The position numbers and the translations under genes were made by a program. 64,000 nucleotides of DNA from Piedraia hortae CBS 480.64. Lineage: Eukaryota. This document shows positions 2,121-59,205 of this stretch, one piece after another. The notes under the pieces were generated by a model. It ran no database searches and was not told where the DNA came from. It saw only the letters and a list, made by a program, of their open reading frames with translations. Numbering within the stretch: the stretch's first letter is position 1; every line of letters starts with the position of its first letter. The stretch spans positions 62,001 through 126,000 of the forward strand of contig MU005994.1 in NCBI GenBank assembly GCA_010093745.1, written 5' to 3'.

Positions 2121-3844
2121 CCTTACATCGCCGGCAGTTTAATACTTGTCCTTGCACTTGCAGTCACCTTGGGCATTGCAAGGACTGCATCCAATGTCCA
2201 CCTCGTATTCATACATCTGAGTGCATCGCAAACGATGCCTTTTGCTGACCGCGCGGCCAAAGACTTTGATAGGAACAAATAAGCTGAAAGGCAGCCCAGA
2301 TGTCCGTGACAATGTTTGTGAACTTTGTGATAGATCTAAGCGTTAGGTAACTCACTGTACCGAGATATTATTCCTGCAAAGGTCCTCTAACCTTCAAAAT
2401 CATGACAATCTATCATACCACATATATACTTCTTCTAACATTCCCTATGAATTTTATGCCGATCGGAGACGAAACTCAAGTCAATCACAGTTTTTGTCAG
2501 TTTATTCACCTGTCTATGAAAGTATTCGCTAACGTACAGCAGACGACTGCCTAGCTGCCAACGGCTGTCTTGGATGCCAGATAATGGTGGAGTGCCCCAT
2601 CCATCATCCAATCTGTAAGAGCCCACTTCAGAGTTTGTGTATTAATGACTGACACGTTGGACAGGGCGCAGTATATCCGCCCTCATCCTGACCCCTGCGG
2701 CCATGGCGCCTTTGTGGAAATATCCCATGGTCAATGGCTCGGGTATGCAGGACCATCATACACAACCACCGTACTATAAGTTTCCCGTCCATATTCGCGG
2801 ATACCATCTAACGCAAAGTAGCTGATGACGTTGGCTCCGCGCCCGCTAGTAAGCCCCGACTCTGCCCCGATGAGGCCAGCAGACAGAGCCTAACCCATAT
2901 GCTGGGCTCAACGCGACAGCTTCCCGAGTGTAGCGACGCTACTTATGTTCAAAACCGCGCATTCTTCGTGAATATGCTTCATGTATTGAATGGGGCGACA
3001 TAACAATACACACAGGCCTACGTGTACCCTAATTTACGTGGAGTTAGGTATATTAATTGTTCTGCATGAATGATGTTTCTGGCCCTTAGTGGTCAAGTAT
3101 CACTGGTGTGGACAGGAAACAGCGATGGAAGAAAGACAACGCGACTGCCCGCCCGAGCCGGCGGGCGGAACTATATACAAGAAAACAACTAATCTATTAG
3201 CGACAAAAATGTCGATCATACGATCGACATGCCGAGGCACCGGCAAGGATCGACATTATGCCACCTCTCGTATCAAGCAATCCTTTGTACCAGTGAGACC
3301 CATGTTTCATATAATATTCTTACTGCTGAAATATATATCTCTTGTCATTTTACATGCTAAAGAGTTGGCCATACGTGCTCCCTGCCTTAGCTCTTTCACA
3401 TTGAATCAAAGACAGCTCTCTTCGTCTCTGTCATCGTTTCCGCCGTTAGTCTAGTTAAGCTTGCCCAAGTGGGATTTGCAATGGAGACCGAGGACTGGAA
3501 TGAAGCTGGGAACATTGTTTTTGGGCATCAGCCAGGGCCATGATATCGAATCAAGGGAGGGACCAGCGCATATAGGCTTTGAACGCAAACAGATCCATGT
3601 AAATGCCTTTCGTCTTGATGTGCAGCGTGAAATGGCCCATGGACAATTCCCCTTTGTCCACACTTGGGGGATAAATTTGCAGATAACAGTAACTCCAACT
3701 CGTCCAGGGTATGATCCATCCTTGTCGGCAATGGATAGCTGGCTGGCGGAAGCGTCTTTGCAGACTGAGCGGCGATAACAGAAACGTGCTCATGGAAGAC
3801 GCTAGGAGCTGGTAGACCAGTCCCCGTTTGGCTCAACTCGATAA

Positions 3845-4220
3845 TGTTGGCATGAAGTCTCGTTGCTATCAGTGTACGATGCCACTGCGCGACACCTCTT
3901 ACACCAGCAGCTGCACCCTAGGTTTTGTCCTCACAGAGGTTTCCCTCAGGGTCATGTCGCATGCGACATGGTGAATGCGCCCTGCTACTGTTATGAGGTG
4001 AGTCATGGAGTAAGACTGCATGCTGACAGTCTTACTGCATGTATGACCACTTGCTTATGGTCATACAATTGATGACTCTTCATACGAGGCTACGCACGGG
4101 CCTTCCAGCCCAGAATATATTCTCTGATGTTCCCTCGAAGATATACTTGTATTCACTCATAAAACACATCTCTACTTTCCATCCATCGTTCTCACTCATA
4201 CATACTATCTGTCTTCGTCA
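3845..4220 (+). mobile_element. Solo LTR, family B (376 bp)
   Basis: TGTTGG...CGTCA termini; near-identical inverted copy at 10534-10909; shares its core with family A. Flanks GATAA / GTTCA. Confidence 0.92.
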
Positions 4221-7200
4221 GTTCATCGTGAGCCATAAGGATCATAGTTCCGGGTGTGGGCAAGAAGTAGTACAGCAATGAGCATGGAAAGCAGGACGAA
4301 GGATTGAAGCTTGGAATCGTGGACTCCAAGGCCGAGGTTGGAAGATAAGATATGGCTGGGATTGGATGAGACGATCTGGGCAAGAGGGAATTCGGGCACA
4401 GGACAAACTTTCTGTGGACGTGCTTCTCAGCGCCTGGAGGAGCATTGCACTGGAAACAATGCCAAGCGTACTCAACTTTGAGAGCACGAATGCTCGAAGT
4501 TCGCCCGCTCGCTAAGGCTGATAATGCCTTGCCCTTGCCAACATTGAGCAAGGTAGATATACGTGGACGAACTTGGCAGGTGGATCATTACAAGATATCT
4601 TCTCCATCGTTACTAGCTCGCCAATATTCTTGAAAGCAGGTTAACACAGTATTGTGGGCATTGCCGGGTGAATCAAATCAGTCAGCTTGTAAGACTTTCG
4701 ATTGAGCAATTCAGATAATGTCTCAATGGAAAACAGAAGCTCCACCATGACACTAGCAGATTGCATAGTCTGGTGGCAAGCACTGTTTCATCTCCTCGAA
4801 GGAGCACCCTGGGGCGAAAGTCGGCTATCGTTGAGGAGGGTCGGGCCAGACGTTCTTTGAATCACACTTTACAGGCCGGCGGCACTAAATTGCGGATCTG
4901 GTCTGGGTCACCCCTTTTCCCTCTGACGGTCTTTGCTGGCTCCGATGCTGACGGCAGTATGGCGCATATGACGCTGGAGCTTGTGCGCGTTCTCAGACCT
5001 GCCGGCAAAAGATGCAGAGTCCAGACACAAGAACTCCACGTGGGTTAACTGCGGCAAAGTCTTAGTCAATCCACGTGGAATTAGCTATGAATGAACAAAA
5101 GCATGATCGGGAATCCATGCCTGTCGAACCGGAAGAGCTGATCGGGGTGTTGCAGTTCCGAGACGAGGAAGTCTTCTTTCCGGGTTTGCAAAAGCAATGT
5201 CAAAGACCGAAGTCGGCCAAGCGCTAAACCTTGGTCAGGGCTTTGCAAGATTTGAGGGTCGGGCTGGGGTTGCGGAGCAAGACGGTTGGGGTAGGATAGC
5301 ATTTTTACTGCTGGAAGACCAAACCACGAGGATGGAGGCAATGATGAGCATGCTGTCTTCCCTCTTCTTGCTTCCCAGATCTGTCTCCAGGCCAGCTCTG
5401 GCTTGATCAGATAGAATTCGCCAGCAACCTGCTTCCACGGCTGACAGGTCCACGACGTGCCATTTTCGGCACTTTGACCTTTTATGTTTTCATAAAGCCC
5501 GATCTCCTCTGTGAACAGCGGCTGCCCTGCGTTTCGGCGAAACTATATATAACAAACTTGCCCCGATGCCTATGTTCCTCCAAGCTTAGGCTGGGTGCTC
5601 TGCCAGTTCAAAACCTGTCAGCAACTTCAGTACTGGATCATTGACAAGCGCAACACTGGTACCAATACTGGGCTTCACAAGTTCTAGCCTGAACATTGTT
5701 TCCGTCCAAGAAGGTGGTTGGAATTCTTTACCGCTACTCGAACCGGGGAGTCAGCGTATGCCCACGGAGAAATGTTGCTGCTCTCTTGCGGGCTGGCTGC
5801 ACATGAATGCAGACTCCAATGTCCATCCCCACTCGAGTCAATCATTGAACTTGAGCCTTACTGTTGTTGTGAAAAATTGGGAAGGAGTTTTTCAGTTGCG
5901 TCTGGAGCACGACTATGAAGATGTTAGGGGAAGGGCAAGAGAGGGGGTTGATAGACGATTACGTGGTGCATTTGTACAAGCTAAGCACAAGCTAGTACTG
6001 GATATCTCACGGGAGCATTGCGCTGGAAGTTTTTCAGATCTGTCATTGTTGTCCTCCACGACGTGCCCTTGAAGATAATGTACGTAAACTTCACCGGTTC
6101 CGGGGAACGATGCAGAGAAGATCTGCTCTGTCCTTCTGCTTCCGAAAAGAAATGCAGAGCATGAGCCCATTGTCTTCCGTGAAACATCCTAACTACATCA
6201 CCATTTGCTGCCCTCTCCATAGACCATATGTTCGATTCCTTACAAAAAGAGTTCCCCTAAAGACTCAGGGTTTGGACATTTATACTTTCGGTTTACTCAG
6301 TATAGCAATCTCCACGAATTCCTCGGTTCACTCCTCAGCGGTCTTATCATCGTGACTTGCCGTGAAGGCCATTCGTTGCAGTGGCCCAGGGGTTCGTGGA
6401 ACCAAGGTGCGGCCGCTTATCTCGGAAGTTGTAATGCCTTTAGCAAGCAAGCGCCCTCCGGCTGCGCCAGGGATCCACTCGACACGGCGCTCACTCATCG
6501 TGGTCGTGAGCATTACGGCCAGATCATCACTGCCTTCTTTCGTGGTGGAAGCGGCGAGCGTCGTTCCGAGACTTGTAAGCCAAGTTGCCGCCTGGGCTGC
6601 AAATGGCCCACTCTGGTTTGCTTGAAGGACGTTGACGAGGTTCTTCGCGGAACCCAGGGAGGTCGTAGGAACGTTAGGATATCAAGCGCGACCAGTTCAA
6701 ACGCGGTGATCATTGACTTGGAGCTTGGGCGCCAAAAGGGGCCGTCTCCAGCTTTCGGTCCAGGACGGCCGTTGAGTCAGCATCAGTTTGGTTTCGTTTG
6801 GAGCTGCTTCAGGTCGTCATGCTTCGTTCCAACCTTTCTTCAGCTTGCTTGCCGTTCGCCCAACTTCACCATTACATCGCGGATAAAGTTTTCCGGCAAA
6901 GAGATAAAACCCATCACTGTGATCCCTACATGCTGAGCCAGACTTCTCTTTCTCATGCCAATACCAGGCGCACATCGAAGTGAAGACGCAACTCCATGAA
7001 GTGAACGGGTTCAAGCTTGCCATCTATCTTGGTCACCAACGGCATTGGCTAACAACTGGTGGTCTCTCCTCTGCAGTCCATGACGTCTAGAACTAACATG
7101 GCCACACACCCTTCTCCAACAGGTGGAGTTTACTGACCTGGCCTCAGAAGCGGCGCCGAGGGTGTCGAGGGTCTGCAGGACAAGTTGTTGCCAATACGGT

Positions 7201-8317
7201 TCAGTATGGTCCGAACTCCGCCCTCCATGTACCAAAGACCCCGCTCACTGCCAGTAAGGAAGCGCTGTGGCATTTCCTTGCATGCGAGCTGATTACCGAC
7301 AGCGGTAATGGAAGAAAACGAGGCAGCGTCAAGCATAGAAAGTGCGGAAGATTTAATTGTATCCCTCGCAGTCTTAGACGAAGAAGCGCTCCAAGGGCGA
7401 CATTGCCGTGATGGTTGTGGTGAATCTCGTTGGTGGCAGACCCAACGACCGGACACACGGCCTGTCCCATCTAAGAGAATTTGCCTTCCTGATAAAAGGA
7501 TTGCCCCGATCATTTTCATCCTGGAGAGTTCTAAGGCGCCGATGGCGTCTTTACCCATACAGGCTAGCAGCACACTGTGTAGCTAACGGAAGGGCCTTCG
7601 TAGACCGCGGCCTTCCAGCTGTCTTTACTACAGGCGAAGTCGATTCGCAAGCCGTGTGTCGCCTCCAAAAAAGGTACCCTTCCAGCGCTTGGGGCTGCCG
7701 CCTGCCGGCGCTCCCATCGTTTGATCAGGCTTCTTCTTCTTCTGGCCCTTGCCTTTTATAGCCAAGCTGGCCAGGAACCTTGTCCAGTTCTTCTGCTGTC
7801 CTTTTCTCCAGCGGTCGTTCCCCCTGCCCGGCCTCGCCGCCTCTTCAACTACGTTTGGCGGAAGTTTGTTGGATGAGCCGCTATGGCTGACTGTTGGCAT
7901 GCTTCACATGGGAAATGACGACTCTGGCGTGTAGATAGGCCTCTATGGGTGGACGGGCAGTAAATATTGATGCCATTGAAAGAACGGTTGGCGACTCTAA
8001 AGTTTGGAAAAAATAATTGCTATATTCAGTCTGATAACATTACTCGGCCAATGGTCTTGCCTGAAAACTACGCTACCAAAGCAGATACTGGGCTCCAAAG
8101 CTCTTCAGATGCTCAACTGCACCATTTTGTTTCCTCGCCCCCCAAAAATTTGCGTCATATCACGTGCAGCTGCTGAATTATATGCAGGTGGGGCCCACGC
8201 AGCCTCCCTTCTTCAACGCAACGTCGATTTTCTCTTCTACTATTCCACCACCACCCACTTCAAACCAATCTCCACCCAATTCGTTTTCAACACACACGCG
8301 ATATCTCTCTGCTTACC

Positions 8318-9541
8318 ATGTCTTCCTCTACCAAAGGCGTGCACTTCGGTGCCGGCAATATCGGCCGCGGCTTTGTTGCCGAGTTCTTGCACAACTCGGG
8401 CTTTGAGGTCGTTTTCGTTGATGTGATGGATGCCGTCATCGACTCGCTCCAGAAGACCAAATCTTACACCGTCACCGAAGTTAGTGATGAAGGTGAGCAT
8501 GACTTTACGATCGACAACTACCGTGCCCTCAATTCCAAGACCGACATGGAAAGTGTCATTCAGGAAATTGCCACGGCCGATACAGTTACTTGTGCCGTTG
8601 GTCCGAACATCTTGAAATTTATTGCGGAGCCTATTGCCAAGGGCATCGCCGCTCGTAAGGCCGAAAAACCCATCGCAGTGATTGCCTGCGAGAACGCTAT
8701 TGGTGCCACCGACACCCTTCGCCGCTTCATTGAAGAAAAGATGGATTCAGAGACGAAGGATAAGATTGGTGAACTAGCTCGCTTTGCCAATTCCGCGGTT
8801 GACCGCATTATCCCCATCCAGCCCGACAACGCTGGCCTTAACGTGCGCATTGAGAAGTTCTATGAGTGGTGTGTTGAGAAGAGCCCGTTTTTGCCTATGG
8901 AGCCCCCTGCCATCAAGGGTGTACACTATGTCGAGGATTTGAAACCGTACATCGAGAGAAAGCTGTACACGGTGAACACGGGCCACGCAACGGCAGCCTA
9001 TTACGGCTACCAGTACGGGGTCAAGTACATCCACGACACCCTCGCTAATCAGGATCTCAAGATAAAGGTGGTGGAGGTGTTGATGGAGACTTCTGACCTG
9101 ATCTGCACGATCCACCCCCACGTAAGTCGTGAGGAGCAGGCTGAGTATATGAAAAAAATTATTAGCCGCTTTTCAAATCCGGCATTGCGTGACAACATCG
9201 AGCGCGTGGGTCGCGCTCCCTTGCGGAAGCTCGGTCGCCGTGATCGCCTCATTGGTCCCGCTGCTCAGTTAGCGGATCTAGGTCAATCCTGTAAGGCCTT
9301 GCTAGGAGGTGAGAATATCAGACTTCTTCAAGGGAAAGACTAACGTTGGACCTCAGCCATTGAGATGGCTCTACGTTTCACCAATGTGCCGGGCGATGAC
9401 GAGTCCGTTCAGCTGTCGAAAATACTCAAGTCGGATGATGCGACCACGGCCACCAAAAAAATTACCGGGCTTGAGGAATCCCACCCGGTCTTTAATGGCG
9501 TGTCTGATAAGGTCAAAAAGGTTCAGAATGAGATTGCTTAG
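8318..9541 (+). CDS. mpdA: Mannitol-1-phosphate 5-dehydrogenase
   Basis: [57 protein letters not shown]; one intron 9309-9356 (GTGAGA..CTAAC..CAG) restores the C-terminus AIEMALRF...EIA*. Confidence 0.96.
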
Positions 9542-9769
9542 GTACTGGGCTGCCAGAAATCAGAGCTGTTAAGTAGATACATGCAATAACTTTCCCAAAT
9601 CGCGTCAATGAGTAAAAGTTGCTTTTGCAACCGCTTAGGAAGATATCTATAGGCCATCGAAAAGGCTCGCGGTCACTTAAAAAGTCGGCGTTAAGTATGA
9701 AGTGGATAACGATTCTCAGGGCACGCATAACTATGACACCATAGCAGTAAGGCTGCTCCTTACGTCCTA

Positions 9770-9970
9770 TCTGCCGTCCTCTCCACGTCCCCCTTCACAT
9801 TTCCATGTCTTCTTCACGCTCCCATCCCGTCCTTCTCCTTCACCTCCATCCTGTCCTCCATTTCCTTCCACCCCCTGCTCCCCCTTTCCTCTCCTCTCCA
9901 TCTTCCCCCACATCCCCTCCCTTCTCTTGTCCCCGCTGCCTCTTCTATGCTTCTTAGGCCCCCTTTCGTT
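9770..9970. repeat. Pyrimidine-rich (C/T) low-complexity tract
   Basis: Strongly C/T-rich on the + strand for about 200 bp. Confidence 0.7.
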
Positions 9971-10533
9971 TTCGCTGTCGAACACTTGTTATCCTGTGCG
10001 CATCCCCCTCAAGGACGCCACCTTTGGCCTGATTCGAAGGCATCTTCAGAAGATTGTTCCAGGATGACATAAGTTGTTCAGTGTGTATGTACTGGACCGA
10101 GAAATTTCCAGAAAGAACAAAAGAAACAAATTCGCTATCGTGGGAAACTCGGAGCCAGTAAGAAGACGGCTCGGGAGTGACGAACTTGGCGGAGTAATGT
10201 CGAGATCACTGATGTCGGAGGCAAGGATTTCGGTGTAACGCTTCATGACTCGAGTCTTGAAGAGTTGGACGAGAAATGGAGACTGAGTGTGCGTTTTTTC
10301 TTATGCGCATGGAGTTTTCGAGCTCCTTCCGCGTTCGCTAAGATGACGTCACTACTGACCCGCTCCACCGTGTAGCAATTCCACCATTATGTGCATCTGT
10401 TATTAAGAATGAAAATTTCTGTCTTCCAATGCAAAAACCGATCGACCTCAGCCAGGAAGAACTGTCTAGGCCTCATACCAGCTCTTCAAAGACGAGACAT
10501 GGGAACAAATTTCGGGCAATATCTCTGATTATC

Positions 10534-10909
10534 TGACGAAGACAGATAGTATGTATGAGTGAGAACGATGGATGGAAAGTAGAGATGTGTTTTATGAGTG
10601 AATACAAGTATATCTTCGAGGGAACATCAGAGAATATATTCTGGGCTGGAAGGCCCGTGCGTAGCCTCGTATGAAGAGTCATCAATTGTATGACCATAAG
10701 CAAGTGGTCATACATGCAGTAAGACTGTCAGCATGCAGTCTTACTCCATGACTCACCTCATAACAGTAGCAGGGCGCATTCACCATGTCGCATGCGACAT
10801 GACCCTGAGGGAAACCTCTGTGAGGACAAAACCTAGGGTGCAGCTGCTGGTGTAAGAGGTGTCGCGCAGTGGCATCGTACACTGATAGCAACGAAACTTC
10901 ATGCCAACA
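10534..10909 (-). mobile_element. Solo LTR, family B (376 bp)
   Basis: Reverse complement of 3845-4220; I see one mismatch (LTR position 15). Flanks in its own orientation GTTCA / GATAA. Confidence 0.92.
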
Positions 10910-11687
10910 TGAACCTCCTGCGGTTAGAAAGTGAAAAGCACAAGCGCAGATCTCGAAACCGACCGGCCTTTTACTACTTCAGATCTCTTCTTGAATTAAA
11001 GTGAGGCTCTCAATTTGACAAAGTGGACGGGACACCGGTCGTTAAATGTCAGAGTTTATATGAAAGCGATACGGGGAGTTGAAGCAGAACATGTCTAAGC
11101 ACTGTGGCCCAGGATAAATAGAATTAATCGAGATCCGGGCGCTCCAATGTTATGTCTCGTCGGGGATAGTGGCCTTTGGAGCATTCTTTGACTTTGGATT
11201 AATATCTTAAAACTTGACATTACTTATCCAGGTATCCATTGCATTTTGTGGACTGAGGACTCCTCAATCTGAGTTGTGTGCCGCTACTTGTATTTCTAAG
11301 ACCTTTTAAAAAAAATTTATCTATGTCCACGGCGCCGCTTTTGGCCTTGCGATGACCTCTCACAGCGCTCTTTGGAGGCTTATTAAAACACGCAAGGCAA
11401 CTTGCTGTGGCTTCAATGAGGTTTTTGCAAATGTGAGTTGGCCTCATTGTGGTTGGTCATTCCCACAGAGACTTGATGTCATCATATTTGTTTGCAGGGG
11501 TTGCATGGCATCATCTGAATCGGGTAATTAATAACAGGGCTAAATTAGCGTTGAATTTTGTATGTTGCTTTCGGTCTGCTGTCACGAGCCAACTCCACTT
11601 GTGTGAAACCCCCTCCATCCTCTTTCAAAATACCTCTTCCACAGCACGGAGCACTCCCTCCGCAAGACCAATATATCTCAGCACCCT

Positions 11688-12451
11688 ATGGATCTTTACG
11701 CCGGGGAAGCCTCTGACTATCGCTTTTCTGCCATAGCTGCGGCATCCACCAGTGAGTTTTTTCCCCGCTCAATCGTTTGATTAATGACAATGCAGACAAC
11801 GTACCGCGTCGTCCCGCCAAGATGGCTTCACTCCCTGATCCTTATGAAACGGAGCCGGACATTGAGCGCGAGAAGCTCATGTATGCTTTATACGGTGGAG
11901 GAAGTGAAGAGGAGGAAGGCCACAAGACCAGATCGGAGGGCTCGAAAAAGACGGACTCCAGCGCTGTGACGAAGCAACGCAAAAAGCTGAACAAGTCCAG
12001 CATGCCACCCAAGACGACCTTCGAGTTGGATCCATGTCGTCCATCTTTCTTGTTGGTGCGTCCGGTCGACAACTACGGATACCTCCCAGACGGCAGTTAC
12101 TTCGAGATTAACCCTCCCACGGACGAGAAGGCTACCAAGACACCGTTCTGGCAGCATGCCGCTGAAAAACACGCCGCTGGAGCTTATGAGGCCCTCAGCG
12201 AGGCTACTATTCAAAGTCACATTATCGAGAACAGCGGAATCCTCGACACAAAGGACGCTATAAAGCAGCGGGATGCATTCGATCATAGAGAAGGACCGGC
12301 CATGATAAATATTTTTGAGACTCAATGTGTACTGCGACGATGGCCAACTTCAGCGTCATGGCAGTTAACGAAGGGTGGTAAGACCGGGCTTATGCAGCAG
12401 ACGCACTCACGGTTTATCAATGCACAACGTGTTCATTCATTGCAGAGTTAG
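11688..12451 (+). CDS. Orphan protein A (putative paralog of 12705-13532)
   Basis: ATG 11688, intron 11752-11795 (GTGAGT..CAG) joins in frame to the 224-aa ORF; no recognisable domain. Confidence 0.6.
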
Positions 12452-12704
12452 GCTAGTAGAATGACAGATATCCAATCTTTTACCCGACTTGGTCTAACCT
12501 TTTACTAGAGCAAATGAATGGCATCCTCAATTTTGCATGCATGTACGGTGAGGTATAAAGTACAGTCTAGGTCATGGCCATTTTAGCGCAGTGTCTATGT
12601 ACACATGGACTGGATACCCCCCTTTAATACCCTGGCTTCCTACTATTACCGGTAGAGAATCATCATCACAGCTTCAGTCGCGATAGAATACCCTCGTCAG
12701 ACAT

Positions 12705-13532
12705 CTACTCGGAGTCTGAATCATAGTGTGTAGCAACATACTGCCAAAACGGCTGTTGCTGCACAAGGGGCTCTGATGGTGTGTATGAATCAGAATCGGA
12801 CAATGAGACAAATTGCTTTTTCGGGGCCCCAGGAGGGTCGGCTTTGGGAACCACCGACACGCACCCGGGATTGATGGAGAATCGCATGGTTTTGGGGCCT
12901 TTTGGCAGCCCTTTGCGCTGGTTGGATCCTTTTTTGGCGTTTCCCTCGCTGCGTGAGGCTGCGTGAGGGTCATCTTTATTTGCGGTCTCGGCCCTAATGT
13001 GTTGAACCGCCTCATGGAATTCGGCTGGCCATTCGCTCTCGCTGTCGGTGGCGTCAGGGTCGGTGGCCGAGTCTTGCTTTCCGCAAGTTCCATCGTGGCA
13101 AGTGGATGCGTCATTGGCAGGTCCCTGAGGCACCGAGGAGAAAAGGGCCGATCCATTGCAGCGTCCAGAATTCTGATAGCCTATTCCACAAGTCAGTCAA
13201 ACGGCTGAGACACTTGGGATGAGCTGTAGTACCTCCTGAGATAAGCCCGGCATCATGCTTGTAGCAATGGACCGATGGCAACCCTTGACTGGCAGGCGAG
13301 GGACCGTCATGAGGCAGTGCGCGACACGCTAGATCGTCTGAGAGAGGATAAGAATGGCTGCTAATATTGCCGGGTGCTGCGCGGCGAACTATTGATTGTT
13401 AGATAGGCTCCACGTTCCTCTGGAACATAGTAGGAGATATGTACCGGGGGCGCTTTCCAGGCTCAGGGCCTCGAGTAAAGAAGTAGGAGCATCCTGGTGA
13501 CTGAATCCTTCCATGCTATGACCTTGGTTCAT
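12705..13532 (-). CDS. Orphan protein B (putative paralog of 11688-12451)
   Basis: ATG 13532; introns 13444-13389 and 13232-13181 (GTAC.. / CTAAC or CTGAC / TAG) give an open frame MNQGHSMEG...PFWQYVATHYDSDSE*. Confidence 0.55.
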
Positions 13533-13543
13533 GACGAATAACA

Positions 13544-13618
13544 ATGTTGCGCGAGACGATGTTGCGCGAGACGATGTTGCGCGAGACGATGTTGCGCGAG
13601 ACGATGTTGCACGAGACG
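13544..13618. repeat. 15-bp tandem repeat (ATGTTGCGCGAGACG)x5
   Basis: Four perfect units plus one with a single change, directly upstream of the orphan B ATG. Confidence 0.95.
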
Positions 13619-14774
13619 ATGTCGTGCAGGGAATGAGAAGACAAGTTCTATACGCAACTTTCTGTTAGTCAACTAGCACACAGGCCACTCACGAACCGGA
13701 AGTCGCAAAATTGCACACAAACATGACGCGCTAGTTGAAGCTAAGTCCAGAATCCCTGTCTAGTGGCAAGGCAATATGGGGAGGCAACCAATCAAATAAC
13801 GCAATTTTGCATTAGCTTCAAATTAGCGCGTTGTTTTGGTGCGACTTTTCGGTGACCGGTATCAAGGGCCCTTAATCAGACGAAGTTTCAGTTGAAAGAG
13901 ATTAAGGGGGTGTATGGCCAACTCTCAAAATCCTTCTAGGCTCAAGAAGGTCAACTACCACCGCATGATGCTAGTAACGTGTTCAAAAGTGTTTGTCATC
14001 TTTGACATCATACATCGGTCTTGCCATCTCAGATCATCACGCACATCTGGCAGAGACTCACCTGCTAGTAGGTTCTATGAGCTGCTGCTCATCAACCGGA
14101 GAATGCGTGAGTCTATATATCACTCAAGCCATTAATGCCCGCTTACATCCAAAACTCGAAACTCACGCGCAACGCAGTAAGAACTATTCTCAATTTCAGA
14201 CAAGGCTCACCGAAATGATCAAACAAATTATCTGCAGTGTCAATAACAAAAAGCGCGAACGGATGGACTTTAGAACGGAAATACACACGCAAGAATACTC
14301 ATACAAGTGCAGTTATCGTGTATCACAGACAGAAAGCAAAATCACTGTAACGATTGTTGATGTGACTACAGGTTCCCTGTGCTTTAGCAGGCATTTGTGT
14401 CTTTTTGAAGATCTCTTTGCTCCTTCCGATCGCAATGCAAAAGAGACGAACATTGCAGATTCACAAGCCACTGCAATACAATGATCCGAAATGGCTTTTC
14501 ACAGCATCTACTCCAGCACCTTGCTGCGGTGTTATTGTGCATGAGTTAGTGACCACCTTTGTGTCATCAAGTCATGCGCATTTGGAAAATACTACGATAT
14601 ACTTGCAATCCCAACAGCTAAAACGGAGCCAGAAGCAACTTGTCCATTGTCAATCGCTTTAGAGCGATGCATGTCGATTGTGTCGCCAAACACGGCAGGA
14701 GCCGAGCGAGATGACGTAAGCAAGCGCAAAGGCGATCGCGGACGTCACTCCAACATCAACAGCATCAAACAGCG

Positions 14775-15608
14775 ATGGCTGACCAAAGCAGCGCGCTAAA
14801 TGCACTTGCATCGTTTATAGCTCTTTCCAAAACTGCGACATCCGCCCGTGCAGCAGCCGAGCTGATAGAACGTGCGACATCCGATCCGAACACATTCGTC
14901 TTTGGAGAACTGCTCCAGCAGCCCAACATTCGTGCATTGAACGACGACGCAGAGTATCGAGCGGCCTGGGAAGTGCTAAAGGTATTTGCTTGGGGCACAT
15001 GGCAGGATTATAAGGGTGATTCGTACACTGGCTAAAATATTGATCGTGCTAACGACTCAACAGCTACTCCGGGTCTTCCTCCACTTTCAGATGCTCAAGC
15101 GCGAAAGCTTCGGATGCTCTCCCTCATAACCATCGCTTCCGAGAAGTCTCCCTCCCCCGACGCTGCACAACACCTGACTTATCTGGCACTTTGTACACGC
15201 CTCGATCTGTCCTCCTTCACTGAGCTGGAACAGCTTGTAATTCAAGCCAATAACGCTGGTCTCATTACCTGCAATCTGGACCATGCTTCCCAAAAGATTG
15301 TTGTGAGGTCTGTAGCACCGCTCCGCGACCTGGCTCCCGGAAGTGTGAAGTTCATGCTTTCAGAGCTGTCCGCGTGGTCCGACAGGAATGAGAGCGCACT
15401 GGCTGAATTGGAATCCAGGATGAACGCGATAAAAAAGAATGCATCAAAGCGGGCGCGCCAGCAATCTAGAGCTGAAAAGCAACTACAAAACGCCTTGCAG
15501 TTTGAGAATCCAATGACCAAAGCATCGTCCTCACGCCAGCCGGAAGTGATGGATTTGGATGGCCAGCACCGTAACTCCTCGAAGTTAGAAGCTGCCGTAC
15601 GTAATTGA
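14775..15608 (+). CDS. csn7: COP9 signalosome subunit 7 (PCI domain)
   Basis: ATSDPNTFVFGELL, LKVFAWGTWQDY, KLRMLSLIT, PLRDLAPGS; intron 15016-15063. Confidence 0.9.
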
Positions 15609-15769
15609 GGCAAAAGCTCCATCTTTGATACGCTAGTTTGGGTGCATGATGAGACAAGCCTAGTAGATCACAGCCTTCTTCGAATCTCCACTGTGAGCTT
15701 GTAATATTTTGTGAGTGAGTCATTGTGATCATGCTCTGTCTTCTTCCACGTCTATATATAACCCCTTTA

Positions 15770-16144
15770 GAGCGTCCACAGCGGCCCGAGGTAAATACCA
15801 AACTGGGGTATTTATCGAACGATTTGTAAACTTTGCCCAACAAACCCCCACACCGGTCCCAGGTTAACCGACTCTTATTTGCCAAACGCCCGATAAGCAA
15901 TGAAGCTATGGCTAACTTACTTAACGCTTTATCCGTCACGTATTTCACAAAACAGGTTAGCGCTACCCACAATTTCTGTCCCTCACCACATCATCTACGC
16001 CGCTTGGCCGGTACTTACCAACACCTGATTGGTATTCACCAAGTACTGATGTGCGGAGCGTAGATTCCGACTGGTAAAGCTTTAAAACCACTTTTATTTA
16101 CCCCACGCCTGTTGGGTATTTACCCCGGACCGCTGTGGATGCTC
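15770..16144. mobile_element. Non-autonomous PIF/Harbinger-type MITE (375 bp)
   Basis: About 30-bp TIRs GAGCGTCCACAGCGGCCCGAGGTAAATACC / GGTATTTACCCCGGACCGCTGTGGATGCTC, flanked by TTA on both sides; no coding capacity. Confidence 0.85.
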
Positions 16145-32368: not shown

Positions 32369-33838
32369 CGGAGCATAGCGAGCGATGCTTATTGATATAA
32401 TGACCTGAGGATGTACATACTTTAAGTGTATAATTATGTAGCAGAAGTAGCAGGGTAGTAGGATCTTTAACCTGAAAATTGTTGGTCCTCTTCATCCGGC
32501 GAGAGAAATCTAATTGGCTCAGCTTGCTGAGCTAAATTTAAGTCCAGCTACGAGCCACACTCAGGACGCCTCTTGATTGGTCCCCATTTCCGGCGGAATG
32601 ATATTGCCACCACGAGCAACACGTGTCACACTTCTACGGAAGTGTACCACGTATCAGCGGATGAATCACCGTTTTTTCTGATCTTAACCACGTGATGCGG
32701 GAGTATCCGCATCCGTCCAGGGGGTTTAGGGGGCTTGGCCCCCGCAACAGAAAAGAAGTTCATGAAGGCCAAACGAAAATTTAGCCCAAGCAATGTGAGC
32801 TACAATTTGGGTGATTAGAGTCTTAGTGCTGAACTGTCAACTGGGAATGGACAATGGCCACCACGAATGGCGTGGGTTTTTTAGCGGCGTGGTTGGGCTA
32901 GGCTGGGTAGGGTGTACCTGTAAATATCCTAGACTAGCATGCCCGATGCCCTTCAGGAAGCCGCGGGCGGCCGTTCGCGACCGCTTCCGCCCAAACGTTG
33001 AAACATAAAGCAAAACAAAATGGATGGCGTGGGTCGTACAGCGGTCCGTTGGCTGAATTGAGTGATTTGTTTGCTGCGCTTTGATTTTACGGGGACTGAC
33101 GTGAGTCTTCGGAGTTGCACTGTGCGGCAAACGATACAAGGTGGGGTCAGCTGACTCGAATATGCTGATATGAGATGTGGCCTGAGAGAATATTAACATT
33201 GAAGCAATACCGGAAAAATATTCGAAGAGCAACTGCCCTTGCAAGAAAGACCTCGCCAGGACGTCTCTACAGTCTAAGCAATCTTATGTTTACTGCCCAA
33301 TGAACCACAGAATACATCACGTATTGGATCGAATCGCCGTCCTTCAGCAGTCAAGCAGTTTTGCAATTGCAGTGAGCGAAATTGGTCCATCAATAAGTTC
33401 ATGTGCATTCGCACAAGCATTTAGTGACTACCTCATACTCAAAATCAAACAAAATTCCCGTCACGATGAGCAACAAAACCACTCACAACCAAGTCCCCTC
33501 AACAAACAACAGAACACCCTCCTTCACCACGAACCGAACGGTCACTGACCCAAATAATCCGTGCCGGTTTTGCAACCCACAATTCCACCTCATCAACAAA
33601 AATGCTAAATCCCATCTCCTCTACCCATCCTTGCAGCAAACACCCCCCTTCACAAGCGCTGTGATCGCTCACCAATTCACCCTATCCCTGTGACAGTCTC
33701 CGCAAAGGGTGACTTTGTCATACAGAAAAACATATAAAAACCCGCATGCAGGCTTGCTATTCTCTTTCACTACTCTTTGCGATTACCCCGTTCTTACCTT
33801 GTAAGAAAAAACTGGAAACGTTTTGCATTACTGCAAAA

Positions 33839-36800
33839 ATGGCCAAAAGTAATAAGAAATGGAGTGATATTGTTCGTGAGTCGATCCCAGATGTTGCCAA
33901 ACAAGGTCCGATCCAGAAAAGGAATTACCAGGCGAATCCAGTAGCGCAGAGGGCTCATCAGGCTGCTCAGAATGGGGAGGGTCAGGCGGCGGAACAGCAG
34001 AGCGGCGGGCAGGGTGGGGCTGCTTCGCAGGAAGGTGGTGGGCAGAGTCATACTCAGGTAGAACAAGGCAATGGTCAAGCTCAGGTCTCTACACAGAAAG
34101 CCCCCGCAACCACGCAGAGCGGTGATCAACAGTCAACGTCGAAGCATAGCAATGGTCAGCCTTCAGCCTCCACGCAAAGGGACAGTGATAAACTTCCCGC
34201 ATCCTTTGACTTGGGAAATCTAGACCTTGGCTTTGCCGAATGGTCACACGTCCGCGGCTACGGCCAAGTACCGGCACGCCCAGCGCCATGTAAACTTGGC
34301 GGGCCTTTTATGCTTAGCGTCAATGCTTTTCTAGTCACTCAGATGAATAGCAAGCCTGTGTACCAGTACGACATCACTATTGACAACGGCGCGGAAAAGC
34401 GAGGCCTTATCCGACGCGTTTGGGATTCCAACACGGTCCAAAAAGAATTGGGCGAAATTTTCATCTTTGATGGGCACAAACTGGCATGGTCAGGGAGGAA
34501 AATCGAAAAAGAGCTTCGTATCTCGGTCGACCTCGATGTTGACGAAGATTGCGAGCCTCATGAAGGCAAAGGGAACAAGCATGTCATTGTAATCCGACCG
34601 ACGCATCAAATCAAATTCGACACGCTCCATAGTTACTTGGCCCACCGGTGTGACTTTGACAAATCGATTCTCGAGGCGATCACATTCTTCGATCACATGT
34701 TGAGAGAGACTCCGTCGAAGAAGCTGACGTCCATCAAGCGAAGCTTCTTCGCACCCGAGGACAAGCGAACGTCTTTGGGCCGCGGTGTCGAGGCATATAG
34801 GGGCGTGTACCAGTCTCTTCGCATCATACATAGCTCAAGGCAAAACGCGCGTCTGGCCATCCTCGTCGATGTGTCCAACGGCACTTTTTGGACGAGCCAG
34901 CGTCTAATCGAAGCCGCTAGAGAGGTCCTCGATGAACAGAGTCTCAACCATTTGGTTAATACGATGACACGAATGGGCGGTGAAAATTCCCGTGCGGTTA
35001 TGCTGAGGCAGAAACTAAGGCGTCTACATGTTACCTGTCAGCATCGCGGCAAGGATGTTACGGACGAGTATGTGGTTGACCGCGTCCTGACCCAGGGCGC
35101 GAGGCAATACAAGTTCATGAAGGACGGCAAGGACATCTCCGTCTTCGACTACTTTATGCAGGCGTACGGTATCCGGCTGCAGTGGCCCGACCTACCACTC
35201 GTCAAGATGACGGGAGCCAACGGACCCGTGTTGCCGATGGAGGTTTTAACCATCAAGCCGCACCAGCGATATATGTTCAAGCTTGATGAGAAACAGACAA
35301 GAGCGATGATAGACTTTGCCGTTACGTACCCAATGAAACGCTCGGAAGCCATCAGAGATGGTGTGGAGAAGCTTGACTGGGCAAATGATCCCGTGCTGAA
35401 GCACTTTGGTGTCAAGATTCAGACAGGACAAATGTTAGAAGAAGCCCGCCAATTGATGGCTCCTCGGGTTAAGTTTAACGGAAGCGAAGAGGATCCGAGA
35501 GACAAAGGTCGGTGGAATCTAAAGGATAGAAGGTTCATCCACAACAACGCCCGCCAACCGTTGAAGACATGGGGTGTTTGTATCTTCACAGGTCGGTTCA
35601 ACCCGAACAAGCCCGTGGTCGAACACTTTGTGAGAAAATTTGTGGATGCATACGTAGGCCACGGTGGTGTCGTCCATGAACGCAACCCATTTATAACAGT
35701 CCACCGCGGCAACGATTGGGAAGCGGGAGTCCAAAGAACATGGAACGACACCGGCAATCATTTCAAACAAACACCCCAGCTCCTCTTCTTTGTCCTCCCG
35801 GAGAAGAACGCCGAAATATACGGCAGCATCAAGCGCAAATGCGACTGCCAATACGGGGTTCCAACCCAATGCGTTCAATACCAACACGTCCAAAAGGCCC
35901 TCGAACAATACATCTCCAACGTCTGCATGAAAGTCAATGCCAAACTCGGCGGCGCCACATCCCTCGCCGTCAACAACACAAACACCAACCTCGTCAAGCC
36001 CGGTACAGCCATCATCGGCGCGGACGTCTCTCACGCCGCCCCGGGATCCACAACCCCCTCCATGGCTGCCATCACCTGTTCCGCGGACATATACGCCTCG
36101 CGCTACTGGGGGCTAGCCGAAACGAACGGTTTCCGCCAAGAAATCATCTCGCCCGACAACATCCACACCGTTTTCGGCGAGCTCATCCGCGCGTGGATCC
36201 ACGGTGTCAACAACAACCAGCCGCCCAGCACAATCCTCTACATCCGCGACGGTGTGTCCGAGGGGCAATACCAATACATCCTCTCTCACGAAGTCGCGGG
36301 CATGAAGAACTTCATGACAGACTACCTCACTCAAAACGGCCACCTACGCCACGGGCAGGCCCCCCTCCCGAACTTCGTCGTCATCATAGGCTCAAAACGC
36401 CACCATGTCCGCTTCTTCCCGGGCCCCGCGGGAGATAATAATTGTAACCCCAAACCCGGAGCCTTACTCGATACGGGTGTCACGCATCCCTATGAGAATG
36501 ATTTTTACCTTTGTTCGCACGCGGCGATTAAAGGGACCGCAAGACCGGTGCATTATTGCGTGTTGATGAATGAGTCAGGATACAGCAATGAGGAGCTGCA
36601 GACATTGTTGTTTGAGCATTGTTATATGTATGTCCGCTCGACGACGCCGGTGTCGCAGCACCCGGCCGTGTATTATGCGCATGTTGTGTCGAATAGGGCC
36701 ATTCCGCATTATCCGCTTTGGAGGGAGAGTCTTAGGGGCGAGTCGAGCAGTGGGAGGGGGACGGAAGAGGGGGATGGGTTCAAGGAGAGGAAGTTGTTGC

Positions 36801-36856
36801 CGCTTAAGGAGATGGGGGGTGGGTGTCATATTAAGAGTGTTATGTGGTTTGTTTAG
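33839..36856 (+). CDS. Argonaute (PAZ-MID-PIWI), intronless
   Basis: KVNAKLGG, IIGADVSH, YIRDGVSEGQ, KRHHVRF, DFYLCSH..IKGTARPVHY, YYAH; Q/G-rich N-terminus; QDE-2 vs SMS-2 clade not resolved. Confidence 0.96.
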   Translation: MAKSNKKWSDIVRESIPDVAKQGPIQKRNYQANPVAQRAHQAAQNGEGQAAEQQSGGQGGAASQEGGGQSHTQVEQGNGQAQVSTQKAPATTQSGDQQSTSKHSNGQPSASTQRDSDKLPASFDLGNLDLGFAEWSHVRGYGQVPARPAPCKLGGPFMLSVNAFLVTQMNSKPVYQYDITIDNGAEKRGLIRRVWDSNTVQKELGEIFIFDGHKLAWSGRKIEKELRISVDLDVDEDCEPHEGKGNKHVIVIRPTHQIKFDTLHSYLAHRCDFDKSILEAITFFDHMLRETPSKKLTSIKRSFFAPEDKRTSLGRGVEAYRGVYQSLRIIHSSRQNARLAILVDVSNGTFWTSQRLIEAAREVLDEQSLNHLVNTMTRMGGENSRAVMLRQKLRRLHVTCQHRGKDVTDEYVVDRVLTQGARQYKFMKDGKDISVFDYFMQAYGIRLQWPDLPLVKMTGANGPVLPMEVLTIKPHQRYMFKLDEKQTRAMIDFAVTYPMKRSEAIRDGVEKLDWANDPVLKHFGVKIQTGQMLEEARQLMAPRVKFNGSEEDPRDKGRWNLKDRRFIHNNARQPLKTWGVCIFTGRFNPNKPVVEHFVRKFVDAYVGHGGVVHERNPFITVHRGNDWEAGVQRTWNDTGNHFKQTPQLLFFVLPEKNAEIYGSIKRKCDCQYGVPTQCVQYQHVQKALEQYISNVCMKVNAKLGGATSLAVNNTNTNLVKPGTAIIGADVSHAAPGSTTPSMAAITCSADIYASRYWGLAETNGFRQEIISPDNIHTVFGELIRAWIHGVNNNQPPSTILYIRDGVSEGQYQYILSHEVAGMKNFMTDYLTQNGHLRHGQAPLPNFVVIIGSKRHHVRFFPGPAGDNNCNPKPGALLDTGVTHPYENDFYLCSHAAIKGTARPVHYCVLMNESGYSNEELQTLLFEHCYMYVRSTTPVSQHPAVYYAHVVSNRAIPHYPLWRESLRGESSSGRGTEEGDGFKERKLLPLKEMGGGCHIKSVMWFV

Positions 36857-41623: not shown

Positions 41624-43101
41624 CCCAGCGAGGGTGGAAAAACGCGAATCTGCACATTTTTACTTCTCGTCATGCGTTAGCGTTCTTTATCCATGGAAGC
41701 AAAACCTCCAGAGGTATCGGGTGTAGTATCCTAGTCCGTAGAATGTACCATGAATCCTTATAACTTTCTCTCTCCTCCGTCTTGAAAGCCCCTATCCCTG
41801 AGCCAGGAAACCGAAGCATACCACGATAACCTGCCAATATTAGCCAACGAGTCACTTACGACTGCACAAATTATGATCTAGATAACAAGAATTGAGTCTA
41901 AAGACAGAGTGTCCAGACTTGTCCGAACTCCTATAGATGTCATGGCCTCGTATGATCCCTTCGTTTAAAAACCGCACTGGCAAGCTCCAGTGTCCTCACC
42001 ACCTCGTGCCACCTGACCAGTTTAGCCGCACAGCCTCCCCCTCGAGACTCACAAGTGTCAATCCTCAGGCTGCAACTCAATCCTCATCAATGAGCTCGAG
42101 CACAAAAGTTGTAATGTTGGATCAGTGTCAAAGCGGCAAGGCTTGATATTACGGTACCGAATTCGATACCAACACCTTTGTTGTGTGAGATGGAGCTTTC
42201 CTCGCTGGATGAATTTTGGGCTATGTAGTTGTCATTCAGCTCAGTAAATGAGAGGCGAAATAACCAGTCCATTCCTGGATAACATATGCCCCAGAACCGA
42301 GGGGAACTCGCGTGATGATATTCCCGAGCAGAAACAGGTCGTGGGCAACATTGGCGGTCTAACTCTCATCAGAAGTCAAAGACTTCGAGGCGGACAGAGA
42401 AACATGCCCCTCCAAGAGGCAAGTGTTGGATGGCATTAGATAAAGGTCGAGATTTCTCAGGGTGTTTAAGTTTCCCTGGGATGAGGCACGGTCCCGGTCA
42501 TGCTCTGTGCGTGCTTGGTAGCTGGTCTCGGTGAATGCGGCTAGGTCTGGGGTAGAGTTCTGCACTTCACCTCACCTCACCTGACATACGCACATATAGA
42601 CATCTACGTGCACCTTAGTCAGTTTCGATTGACCTGACCCCCACACATTAGGCTTTTCACTTCTCCCACTGGAGGCTTATTTTCCAACGGGCTGCCTGAA
42701 GGTGATCATACCATTCAATGCAAGAATGGATTTCGAACTTGGCCTTTTCAGCGGACCTTTTTACCGGAGATTGTCTTCAAAAAACAGTTACAATTCGTGA
42801 ACTAATGGTGCACTCTTAATCCCAGACTCGAGATCCATTTCATTTACTTTTGCATAGCTATATGCTCGTCATATTCCGTGGGCTCTTGACAGTATATGCT
42901 GATGAACTGGGTCGTATGAGTTGATTTTCTCAACATTATAACGTTTTTCAACTGCTATAACGCGTCGGCACCCTCTAGTCACCCCTCTCCTCTTGCTCAG
43001 CATTAATGTCATTCGTTTACCCAGGGGGATATGCTCGTCATATTGCGTGGAGTTTAGATAACATATGACGATCATATCCTTTGAGTAATCATATGTTTGT
43101 T

Positions 43102-43200
43102 ATATGCTGGGGATATGCTGGGGATATGCTGGGGATATGCTGGGGATATGCTGGGGATATGCTGGGGATATGCTGGGGATATGCTGGGGATATGCTGGGG
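43102..43200. repeat. 11-bp tandem repeat (ATATGCTGGGG)x9
   Basis: Nine perfect units read directly from the sequence. Confidence 0.95.
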
Positions 43201-45442
43201 ATATGATTCGGGGTCCGGTTCATCTCTCAATTGACATGTTGTGGATTAGAACATGACTGAGAGGCGTTTCATGCTGAAGATTGACCGACTGAGGAGTAGC
43301 AACTCCCGTCCCCATTCTCGTTCCTGGATCCCGTCTCTCCGTGTCTCAAACACGGATGCATTCCCTCGAGATCACCAACCCTCCAATCCCGAGAAGCACA
43401 ATTTGCCCTACTCCTCCAGCAGTCAAACGCTGTTGCTGTACCTATCTCTCACCCACAGCCTAAAGTTCCTCTCCTGCGATAGCGAATTATCTCTTTGTGA
43501 TATTCCCGCGTAGCATCGCAGTACAAATGTCATCGGCCCCCAAATCCCAGGGTATATACCCGCCGGCACAAACTCTCATATAGTTCCCTTGTTTCCGCAC
43601 TCCCTTCTGCCATATCACGAAGTCTCTCCCCCTCCTCTCAAGTAACCGCTTCCCAGTCTATTTGGGATACATCGCGGAGGGATTGGCATCTACAGGCCCA
43701 CGACGCCTTATAGGGGAGAGTGATAGATCTGCGATGCCGCTTGGCATCTGACCTTGCAAGGAAGATTAGATTCTTTGTGCGGTTGCGGCAACATTCAGCT
43801 TGGTGCCATGGCAATTCTTGAGGTTATCAATCCGCTCCAAACTGCGCAGCCAGCCCAAAATTCAACGCGTCTGATCTCCCCAAACCTGAATGATTTCCTC
43901 ACTTGATCGATTCTGCCTCCCCTCGTCTCACCCATGAGGTTTTCCAGTGATCTCTATATAGCTCAACGATCATCAAATTCTTCACATCCACTCCACTCCC
44001 TGGCATTGAAGACAAGTTCAAACTGTCTCTGCAAAGCGGCCTCGCGAGTTTTATTATATTTTTTACCGACCAGTAAGGTTCTGTACCAAGGCGCTGGAAC
44101 GGCTAACTTTTATGTCAAATTCAATACGGTTGAGTAAATTGAGAGGGGAATGGATCTTATACTAGCTCCAGTCCAGATGGTGTTGAAAGCAGTTTATGCA
44201 GACCTGGGTTGGTAATTGGAGGGTTGGTTTACCCGTGGATTGGAGGTTGGATGGTGCATATCGACGTTTGTTGACATTGGTGGGTAGACTACTTCGATTG
44301 AGGTGGTGTAGCAACTTTGAATTTTCTTGATGATCATGTTGGGATAAAGCTGATGTAACGCCCTGCCAGTCATCGTCATCGAATTCCTCTTGGGTCTGAT
44401 TCGTCGAGAGAATGGCGTCTTCGTCCGTAATTGGTACTTTCTGAAGGACAGGCTTCATTCTGTGACTCTCTGCAAGGCAGTCATCACACCCATACAACCT
44501 ATGCGTTGATACCTTGTGCAAACGCAGTATGTCCTTCTCTCTTTGAACCCTTTCGTGGCCTGATCAAATCTTCTCGCCATATACCCCATAATACTTTCCC
44601 AGTTGATAGCGAGGACGTAAATAGGATTGCTATACCCAATCCCCACCTACCTGCTGAGCTGCAAGTCCCTCCAAGTATATATCCTCAGCGGAATAGACAG
44701 ACGTATACCAAATATCCTGTAACTCCTCACAGAAAGATCGTCTTTGAACGAAAGGCCGACAGCATAAAACGACTTCGCCATTCGCAGCTGAATATTTCCT
44801 GCAAAGTGAAGTTCATAATCATGTCTTTACCTAATCCCCTGGTTTATGTGGATGATGTTCAGTCCACTGGAGAGGGACATGTCCCTCAGCAGTTGTCCCG
44901 CGGGAAATAGTTTTCCTGCCATGCTCTCCCATCTTCGTTCCAGTCTACGATGACATTCGCTGGTCGACATTGATAGAAAATAATGGCCGTCTTTGCACCC
45001 ATATTCACACGCAGTCACATACAGATCGACTGGGTGCCAGGGCAGATGTCGAGGACTTACTAGGTGATATGCATCACAAGATCGGCATGAAGGCTAGTGA
45101 AATGACCTGGTGCGTCTACAGAGATTCGGCGGTTGAGGCCTGTCACCAGGCTGGATGAGAGAGACCCAGATCTATGATTTTGTCGTGTGATAGACTCAGC
45201 GCAGAAGTATGTAGAAGTTTCTAGATAGTTGGACTGCCTGCCCCTCTGGAGCGGGGCCCAAAATTCACGCGGTGCAAGACGCGATAAAGTAACACTTCCC
45301 GTGTAAGGGGGTACAAAACGAAGAGAATCCCACCATAGGGAGAGTGACATATAGTGACTGGGTACCAAGACCTTTCAAGCTATATAATACAATAAGTTTA
45401 CACAGAGTTGAAGGTATCATGGTCGTCAGATGCCTACACTTG

Positions 45443-57314: not shown

Positions 57315-57639
57315 TGTATAGGTTTAGCTCCCGTGGTTGAGAGTGCGCAGCAACCCGAAGAGGACGGAGCGATAGACGAAATCAGGGACAGGACAGATGT
57401 AGATGTATATGAGTCAATACCAGTGTCGATATGACGGCGTGAATGACTATTTTTCTCTATGAGGGGACGTCACGTCGTACACTAGCAGGGCACACTCGCC
57501 ATGTCACATATGAAATGACCCTGAGGGAAAACCTCTGTGAGGGAAAAAACCTAGGATGCAGCTGATAGTGTAGGAGGTATCGCTGACTTGCTATGCAAGT
57601 GCCCCACATACGCGCTAGCGGCGATGCTTGAATCCAACA
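57315..57639 (-). mobile_element. Solo LTR, family A (325 bp)
   Basis: TGTTGG...ATACA in own orientation; flanks AGGAC / AGGAT (TSD with one mismatch?). Confidence 0.88.
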
Positions 57640-58880
57640 GTCCTCTCATGTTTTTAGTCAGGAGGATTTTTTCCCAAGAACATCATTCATCCAGGGAAAT
57701 TCACTTTCATCTCTACTGAGGTATGCGTTCCTTCCTTCTCCTCTGACATCAGATTTGCTCGAAGGTGAGAGATGATGACTAATGAGGCGACTGAAACGGT
57801 TGGAGGTGAGGGCTACAAAACAGAGGCGTGTCGAGATATCTGACTCATGAAGGTGGATTAATAGGATACTCCTCTGTACTACTGCACACCTCTTCGCCAA
57901 ATAGATCTACGAGTCCAAAGTATTCCATGCAGTTAATAGCTTGATTTCCCAAAACTCAACGCATTGCTATCGTGAATAATCAAATCTGGTTTCACATGAA
58001 GGATGATCTTGTACAAACAAGTGGGATTTACATAACACCCATCGTGTATTTCCATCTTCTTGGAACGATTCTCGAATGTTCACATCGGCAGTGGGCCACT
58101 GGTGGCACAACCCGTGTGGTGGGGCGGATTCTGTCATCCATCTCACGCTATCAGAAACAAATCATTGACTTCTTCGAAATCCGATTAAACGCTCCTCCTT
58201 CCCAATTCCATCTTCAAACCCCATCAATAGTGATAACAGGAAGACGCGCGAGACGATATACTTGTCGACAACCTACACGCCAAATAGTAGAGATTAAGTT
58301 ACCAGTCGCCCTAACCTTGATGGAACTGGCTCCTGGGTAACATAAACCGAGTCTTCATAAAACTCTGCCTTTCCACCACTAGATTAACACCAACCAAATC
58401 CGCTCTTCATAAAACCTCACAACATTACCATTTCCGACATCCTCCTCAACCCAGCGGAAAATTGAGAATTTCAAGCCGCCAAGCTTCTATACCCCACTAC
58501 AATGACTTAATAAATGGCACCATACCCAAAGCATGTTTCTCTACGAACGCGATAAAGGAAAAGACGGAGCCACGAATCCCACAACGTGCGTAGATGGATG
58601 CACAAGAGGGAAATAAACACACAAGGACCCACGCTCCAGTTTTCACAAGTACGAAGCAAATGATTCATCCAAAATAGTTCATCTGGAAAGATGTCTTGTC
58701 AGTATTGGGATCCCGGATCTTCAATCGAGATGGGGAAGTAAGTTCAGATTACTTCAGCGATCTCATTGCTTTCTCTTGCCCATTCTTAACATCCATGGAG
58801 AGATGCGATGAATGGACTATTACATTCTTGCAGCATATAATGTGCATCGGTAACATGTGTTCTTGTTTCGTCTTACACTT

Positions 58881-59205
58881 TGTTGAAGTCAAACGTCGCC
58901 GCTAGCGCGTATGTGGGGCACTTGCATAGCAAGTCAGCGATACCTCCTACACTATCAGCTGCACCCTAGGTTTTTTCCCTCACAGAGGTTTTCCCTCAGG
59001 GTCATTTCATATGTGACATGGCGAGTGTGCCCTGCTAGTGTACGACGTGACGTCCCCTCATAGAGAAAAATAGTCATTCACGCCGTCATATCGACACTGG
59101 CATTGACTCATATACATCTACATCTGTCCTGTCCCTGTTTCCGTCTATCGCTTCGTCCTCTTCGGGCCACTGCGCACTCTCATCCACGGGAGCCCAATCG
59201 CTACA
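58881..59205 (+). mobile_element. Solo LTR, family A (325 bp)
   Basis: TGTTG...GCTACA; centre nearly identical to the 57315-57639 copy; flanks CACTT / ATAGA (no TSD). Confidence 0.88.

Follow-up and report, generated by a model that had tools for sequence, protein, structure and literature searches.

Exchanged target-site duplications (TSDs) have been described as the predicted signature of ectopic recombination between inverted copies of a transposable element (PMC2775673, in the passages cited here). The closest described case is inversion 2z3 of Drosophila buzzatii, which was generated by the element Galileo: opposite copies lie at the breakpoints, their TSDs are exchanged, and ectopic recombination is given as the cause. 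In fungi, yeast Ty-mediated inversions cited in the same source involved intrachromosomal non-allelic recombination between inverted repeats and flipped a few kilobases. The same mechanism and scale apply to repeat-mediated inversions in Candida albicans, mostly with longer repeats and in some cases centromeric, which were confirmed by PCR or long reads (PMC6591007, PMC12047244, in the excerpts used). Other fungal inversions act as switches. The MAT locus of the filamentous ascomycete Sclerotinia sclerotiorum carries short inverted repeats (250 bp) around a 3.6-kb segment that inverts in every meiotic generation; the repeat is a piece of MAT1-1-1, and the flip truncates this gene and alters expression (PMC3574095). 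In Ogataea (Hansenula) polymorpha, starvation induces inversion of a gene-bearing mating-type segment, the ends of which differ in expression state (PMC4238957). As far as these accounts extend, known fungal inversion switches either interrupt a gene or exchange an active for a silent position (PMC3574095, PMC4238957).

A comparable arrangement occurs in Piedraia hortae CBS 480.64, within a window of 64,000 nucleotides (contig MU005994.1, positions 62,001 to 126,000). Like 2z3, it shows opposite element copies at the breakpoints and exchanged TSDs. In contrast to that large inversion by a DNA transposon, for which non-inverted chromosomes were in hand, the present elements are 376-bp solo copia LTRs that enclose 6.3 kb in one assembly, and the inversion is read from the sequence pattern. 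The relevant features are as follows.

3840–3844, plus strand: GATAA, outer left copy of target site A
3845–4220, plus strand: left LTR, a solo Ty1/copia LTR with its sense strand toward the segment; would be a chimera under a real inversion
4221–4225, plus strand: GTTCA, inner left copy of target site B
4221–10533, no strand assigned: putative inverted segment, 6313 bp, single copy
7591–7954, no strand assigned: probable decayed LINE fragment, 66% identical to G000:C15:236969-237352, just 3′ of an RVT_1-encoding open reading frame (ORF)
8318–9541, plus strand: predicted mannitol-1-phosphate 5-dehydrogenase (M1PDH), second, fast-evolving paralog; exons 8318–9308 and 9357–9541, intron 9309–9356
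10529–10533, plus strand: TTATC, inner right copy of target site A, the reverse complement of GATAA
10534–10909, minus strand: right LTR, an inverted solo Ty1/copia LTR with its sense strand toward the segment; one difference, at 10895
10910–10914, plus strand: TGAAC, outer right copy of target site B, the reverse complement of GTTCA

Both focal LTRs measure 376 bp, have TG...CA ends and lie in opposite orientation, with 375 of 376 bases identical. The sole mismatch affects LTR base 15 (C at 3859, T at 10895, in LTR orientation), the longest identical run is 361 bp, inverted and 6.3 kb apart, and with only this one difference the crossover point cannot be placed. Read along the LTR, the left copy lies between GATAA and GTTCA, and the right copy between GTTCA and GATAA. 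In silico reverse complementation of 4221–10533 yields GATAA-LTR-GATAA and TGAAC-LTR-TGAAC, i.e. two perfect TSDs. Two independent five-base matches would arise by chance about once in a million cases (4^-10, by hand arithmetic that leaves aside the target-site bias of the family). The exchange involves neither deletion nor duplication, and depth is flat in sequencing run X1; the window contains no N bases, and there is no gap at either focal LTR. Searched against the genome assembly (G000), the segment gave three matches, namely itself, the mpd paralog and the LINE relic. The first-pass annotation had reported two inverted 376-bp LTRs about one base apart with swapped TSDs, which proved exact when coordinates and flanks were re-read; its expectation that re-inversion of 4221–10533 would restore both 5-bp TSDs held, as did the perfect 5-bp TSD it had noted for a copy of a related family at 61698.

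The family to which these LTRs belong was surveyed in the assembly, which comprises 16.9 Mb in 132 contigs. An LTR search gave 372 first-look candidates, 40 of which were scored; these are full-length copies at at least 97% identity, after a duplicate row had been merged and an additional 87% copy (L023), the end of which could not be located, had been left out. Perfect 5-bp TSDs flank 33 copies, and one copy, on contig C4, is unmatched, with a 3′ flank similar to what follows the 5′ LTR in a full-length element. Two are the focal pair, the only copies with swapped flanks (0 among the 38 other young copies). The remaining four TSDs carry one mismatch (L019, L020, L028 and L040, 4 of the 38 young non-focal copies), and two of these LTRs are 99.5–100% identical to the focal ones. 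The left LTR is one of ten copies in G000 with identical sequence (100%), and the flanks of the other nine all match. Among 16 older copies (fifteen plus a second L023 copy), the flanks match in nine, match with one mismatch in one and are unclear in six, a count in which best-offset fitting inflates the matches.

The affiliation of the family follows from L155, L159 and L156, whose LTRs are 96%, 95% and 89% identical to the focal one. In each, a match to copia reverse transcriptase (RVT_2, PF07727) and then a polypurine tract directly precede the LTR. Hence, the family is Ty1/copia, its sense direction is fixed, and both focal LTRs point inward. TGT...CA ends together with 5-bp TSDs have been described for fungal GalEa copia elements (PMC5445492, in the part cited). 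The flanks of the focal LTRs contain neither a polypurine tract nor internal sequence; both LTRs are thus solo members of a young Ty1/copia family. Solo copies are in excess, suggestive of common LTR-LTR recombination over a few kilobases in this genome, with the proviso that the solo share may be inflated by short-read assembly. With 40 copies distributed over 17 Mb, the expected number of inverted pairs spaced at most 7 kb apart is about 0.3 (hand arithmetic), and the assembly contains a further three close inverted pairs (contigs C55, C26 and C48), each LTR of which has its own TSD. Two independent insertions as close as the focal ones are therefore not unlikely.

Taken together, these data are best explained by one past, effectively fixed inversion of 4221–10533 through ectopic recombination between solo LTRs, to which we assign a probability of roughly 0.75. 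A recently active Ty1/copia retrotransposon would have inserted twice, independently, about 6.3 kb apart and in opposite orientation, each insertion producing its own 5-bp TSD, as is seen for the family and presumed for the focal two. Both copies would have been reduced to solo LTRs, the state in which they are found. A single non-allelic crossover between the inverted copies, to which the flanks point, may have flipped the intervening DNA and exchanged the TSDs. The event is most likely recent. The flanks are correctly paired at the nine other copies identical to the left LTR, which indicates that the assembler handled identical 376-bp repeats properly elsewhere. The earlier proposal of two independent solo LTRs whose exchanged TSDs stem from an inversion by ectopic recombination is retained as the likeliest cause.

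Alternatively, though we regard this as unlikely, the chromosome could carry the TSD-restored arrangement, and the assembler could have inverted the unique segment, whose bordering repeats exceed the short fragments in length; a flipped contig would give the same exchanged-TSD appearance. According to the part of the source cited here, a published Illumina assembly of Piedraia hortae was built with AllPaths-LG from 270-bp fragments and a 4.5-kb mate-pair library (PMC7082219). The focal pair is the only examined close inverted pair whose identical run (361 bp) exceeds a 270-bp fragment, and for Candida albicans it has been suggested that the reference is wrongly oriented between inverted repeats (PMC6591007, as excerpted). 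However, if G000 rests on the 4.5-kb mate pairs, these are shorter than the 6.3-kb segment and would orient it unambiguously; both focal LTRs are free of assembly gaps, and among the 38 other young copies there is no case of flanks mispaired by a swap. Identity is lower within the remaining close inverted pairs (97%, 93% and about 87–93%), and the longest identical runs of the first two measure 113 and 67 bases, versus 361 in the focal pair. Since recombination and misassembly both favour the most identical pair, these more diverged controls do not separate the two readings.

Two public runs, X1 and X2, both available as contigs only, were compared with the locus over 2200–10533. X1 may itself be the origin of the DNA described here; X2 is at most tentatively taken as RNA, and neither run is recorded as such. 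Contigs of X1 contain the junction between left flank and LTR, the junction between LTR and inner segment, and the entire inner segment at even depth (13.6 versus 13.4 and 11.2 in unique left-flank bins), which speaks for a real event. The LTR-to-inner junction (left LTR/4221) is found on contigs of both runs, while X2 covers 13 of 30 bins, has low depth outside repeats and is uninformative on expression. No contig of X1 or X2 crosses a whole LTR in this interval, which leaves the orientation unphased and is compatible with an assembly artefact. An LTR-free (empty-site) allele was not seen among the contigs of either run. One contig joins 3264 to 3845, with 29 letters on its short side; instead of an allele of this locus, it is better read as another locus, in which the LTR lies beside a copy of the repeat at 3121–3265. 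This short high-copy repeat has very high depth in both runs and a 92% match over 75 bases in L155. Homologues of the flanks that could orient the segment were sought in G000, where 3270–3844 and 10910–16000 gave self-matches only.

An actual inversion that still flips is improbable in our view, and more improbable still is unregulated recurrent flipping in which both orientations coexist at measurable frequency in one culture or among isolates. The 361 bp of perfect inverted identity at a distance of 6.3 kb would favour such a process, and inverted-repeat inversions are polymorphic in C. albicans centromeres (PMC12047244, PMC6591007, excerpts). Yet, lone LTRs and retrotransposons together account for only 5.7% of copy-number and inversion breakpoints in C. 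albicans in the cited portion of PMC6591007. The first-pass annotation took the near-identity of the repeats as a hint of continued flipping; with ten copies in G000 that are 100% identical to the left LTR, this near-identity is accounted for by the youth of the family and needs no gene conversion. Under the favoured single inversion, a reverse flip would be possible in principle, at the low rate of spontaneous ectopic recombination and without being programmed.

The gene content of the segment bears on a possible function. The start codon of the M1PDH gene lies 4.1 kb from the left LTR and its stop codon 1 kb from the right LTR, so that both breakpoints are intergenic and the gene and its near promoter are untouched. 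In either orientation, the distances, the LTR sequence and the inward LTR direction around the gene are the same; given this unchanged setting, any difference would have to come from outside the LTRs. The left surroundings hold another LTR and a decayed Tc1-like transposase, ordinary genes are present within about 5–15 kb on both sides, and GC content stays at 46–55% across the region without sign of a one-sided silent domain. Judged from sequence, there is neither a breakpoint in a gene or promoter nor an evident difference in expression state between the ends, unlike in Sclerotinia, where a gene is cut by a flip between copies of a gene piece, or in Ogataea, where such an asymmetry exists; transposon remnants form the repeats here. 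The suggestion of a switchable cassette is not supported, because the breakpoints miss the gene and near promoter and the local setting is identical both ways. That of a recombination-suppressed cassette fares no better, as 6.3 kb with one gene would be negligible as a suppressor.

Very improbable, accordingly low in our ranking, is a reversible switch made from two ordinary solo LTRs, in which the segment would flip often enough for one mycelium, or different isolates, to show both orientations, and its differing surroundings, transposon-rich on the left and gene-rich on the right, would tune the second M1PDH. A regulated switch of mannitol gene expression resembling the Sclerotinia and Ogataea mating-type loci is scarcely credible, since it shares with S. 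sclerotiorum (PMC3574095, passages cited) the geometry alone, while breakpoints that fall 4.1 kb upstream of the start codon and 1 kb downstream of the stop codon, LTRs facing inward in both states, generic repeats from a family of 372 first-look candidates that are not locus-specific, and ordinary genes on both sides with no evident one-sided silent domain all speak against it. The inversion is probably neutral, as no gene is cut and the mpd duplicate, bordered by equivalent LTRs, takes its promoter and terminator region along.

A composite or cargo-carrying mobile element was rejected as well, given that the outer flanks GATAA and TGAAC differ and that the gene is old and keeps the intron of its paralog. 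The ORF at 8318–9541 is intact, encodes 391 amino acids and contains one 48-bp intron; its product scores over the cut-off for PF01232 (Mannitol_dh) and PF08125 (Mannitol_dh_C) and matches two solved M1PDH structures. It is thus a predicted mannitol-1-phosphate 5-dehydrogenase, in agreement with the initial assignment. The label of a "key gene", mpdA, does not carry over, however: the window copy is a divergent second copy, and a syntenic, slowly evolving M1PDH gene is located at C1:240816-242030, the protein of which is 75% identical. A tree built from 38 proteins, selected among the 120 matches listed, places the two as sisters (100/99), with branch lengths of 0.49 for the window copy and 0.037 for the C1 copy, i.e. 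a window branch about 13 times longer.

The two copies have the same intron position, a dN of 0.17 and saturation at synonymous sites (pS 0.80), which points to an old, DNA-level duplicate; a retrocopy origin was rejected. The window copy is thus under purifying selection and far older than the LTRs, which did not bring it. Neighbours were compared in 31 of 79 metagenome loci, those longer than 6 kb. The neighbours of the C1 copy, which we take from their translations to be WD40 and ArfGAP proteins, adjoin mpd in 9 and 3 of the 31 loci, respectively. None of the neighbours of the window copy lies beside mpd in these loci; likewise, the ORFs in the first 40 kb of the window and in the 20 kb upstream gave no match to the mpd surroundings there, so that synteny gives no orientation of the segment. 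The C1 copy is accordingly the ancestral locus. With its long branch and intact frame, the window M1PDH is a candidate for a changed role. Among the titles and abstracts searched, in which subscription journals are thinly covered, no report on this locus or the duplicate gene was found.

The inversion is most likely an ordinary rearrangement of an already known kind, cleanly exemplified and with no sign of switch function. If real, it would be a tidy and very recent fungal case of solo-LTR recombination that flipped a gene-bearing segment, read from the TSDs of one genome, and the locus could serve as a PCR target for the rate of recombination between 376-bp inverted LTRs. Knowledge of transposon-driven inversions would remain unchanged, and little phenotype is predicted. 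Possibly more deserving of attention is a side result, namely the retention, in a fungal genome of very small size, of an old second M1PDH on a branch about 13 times as long as that of its sister.

Several further repeats were recorded. The LTRs at 57315–57639 and 58881–59205 form an inverted pair of a related family, 94% alike and 1.2 kb apart, with TSDs that are not swapped. As a candidate second swapped pair they were discarded: the former has its own TSD with one mismatch, and the flanks of the latter are unmatched. The LTR at 175–541, which lacks a TSD, shares with 57315–57639 nine identical bases just 5′ of the LTR (166–174, 57640–57648) that resemble the polypurine tract of the family. 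In L154 (1872–2218 and 2947–7973), a solo LTR lies inverted 730 bp from a near full-length copia element, and its 5′ flank is the same as the 3′ flank of that element. As the reciprocal comparison gives no match, this is at most half of a swap pattern. The Tc1/mariner-type transposase at 680–1864 is decayed, with stops and frame changes, and its HTH_Tnp_Tc3_2 and DDE_3 matches are below or near the cut-off. A 1047-amino-acid ORF at 33713–36856 is presumably Argonaute-like, from a reading of its translation. Tandem arrays occupy 43069–43222 and 13526–13627, with units of 11 bp and 15 bp.
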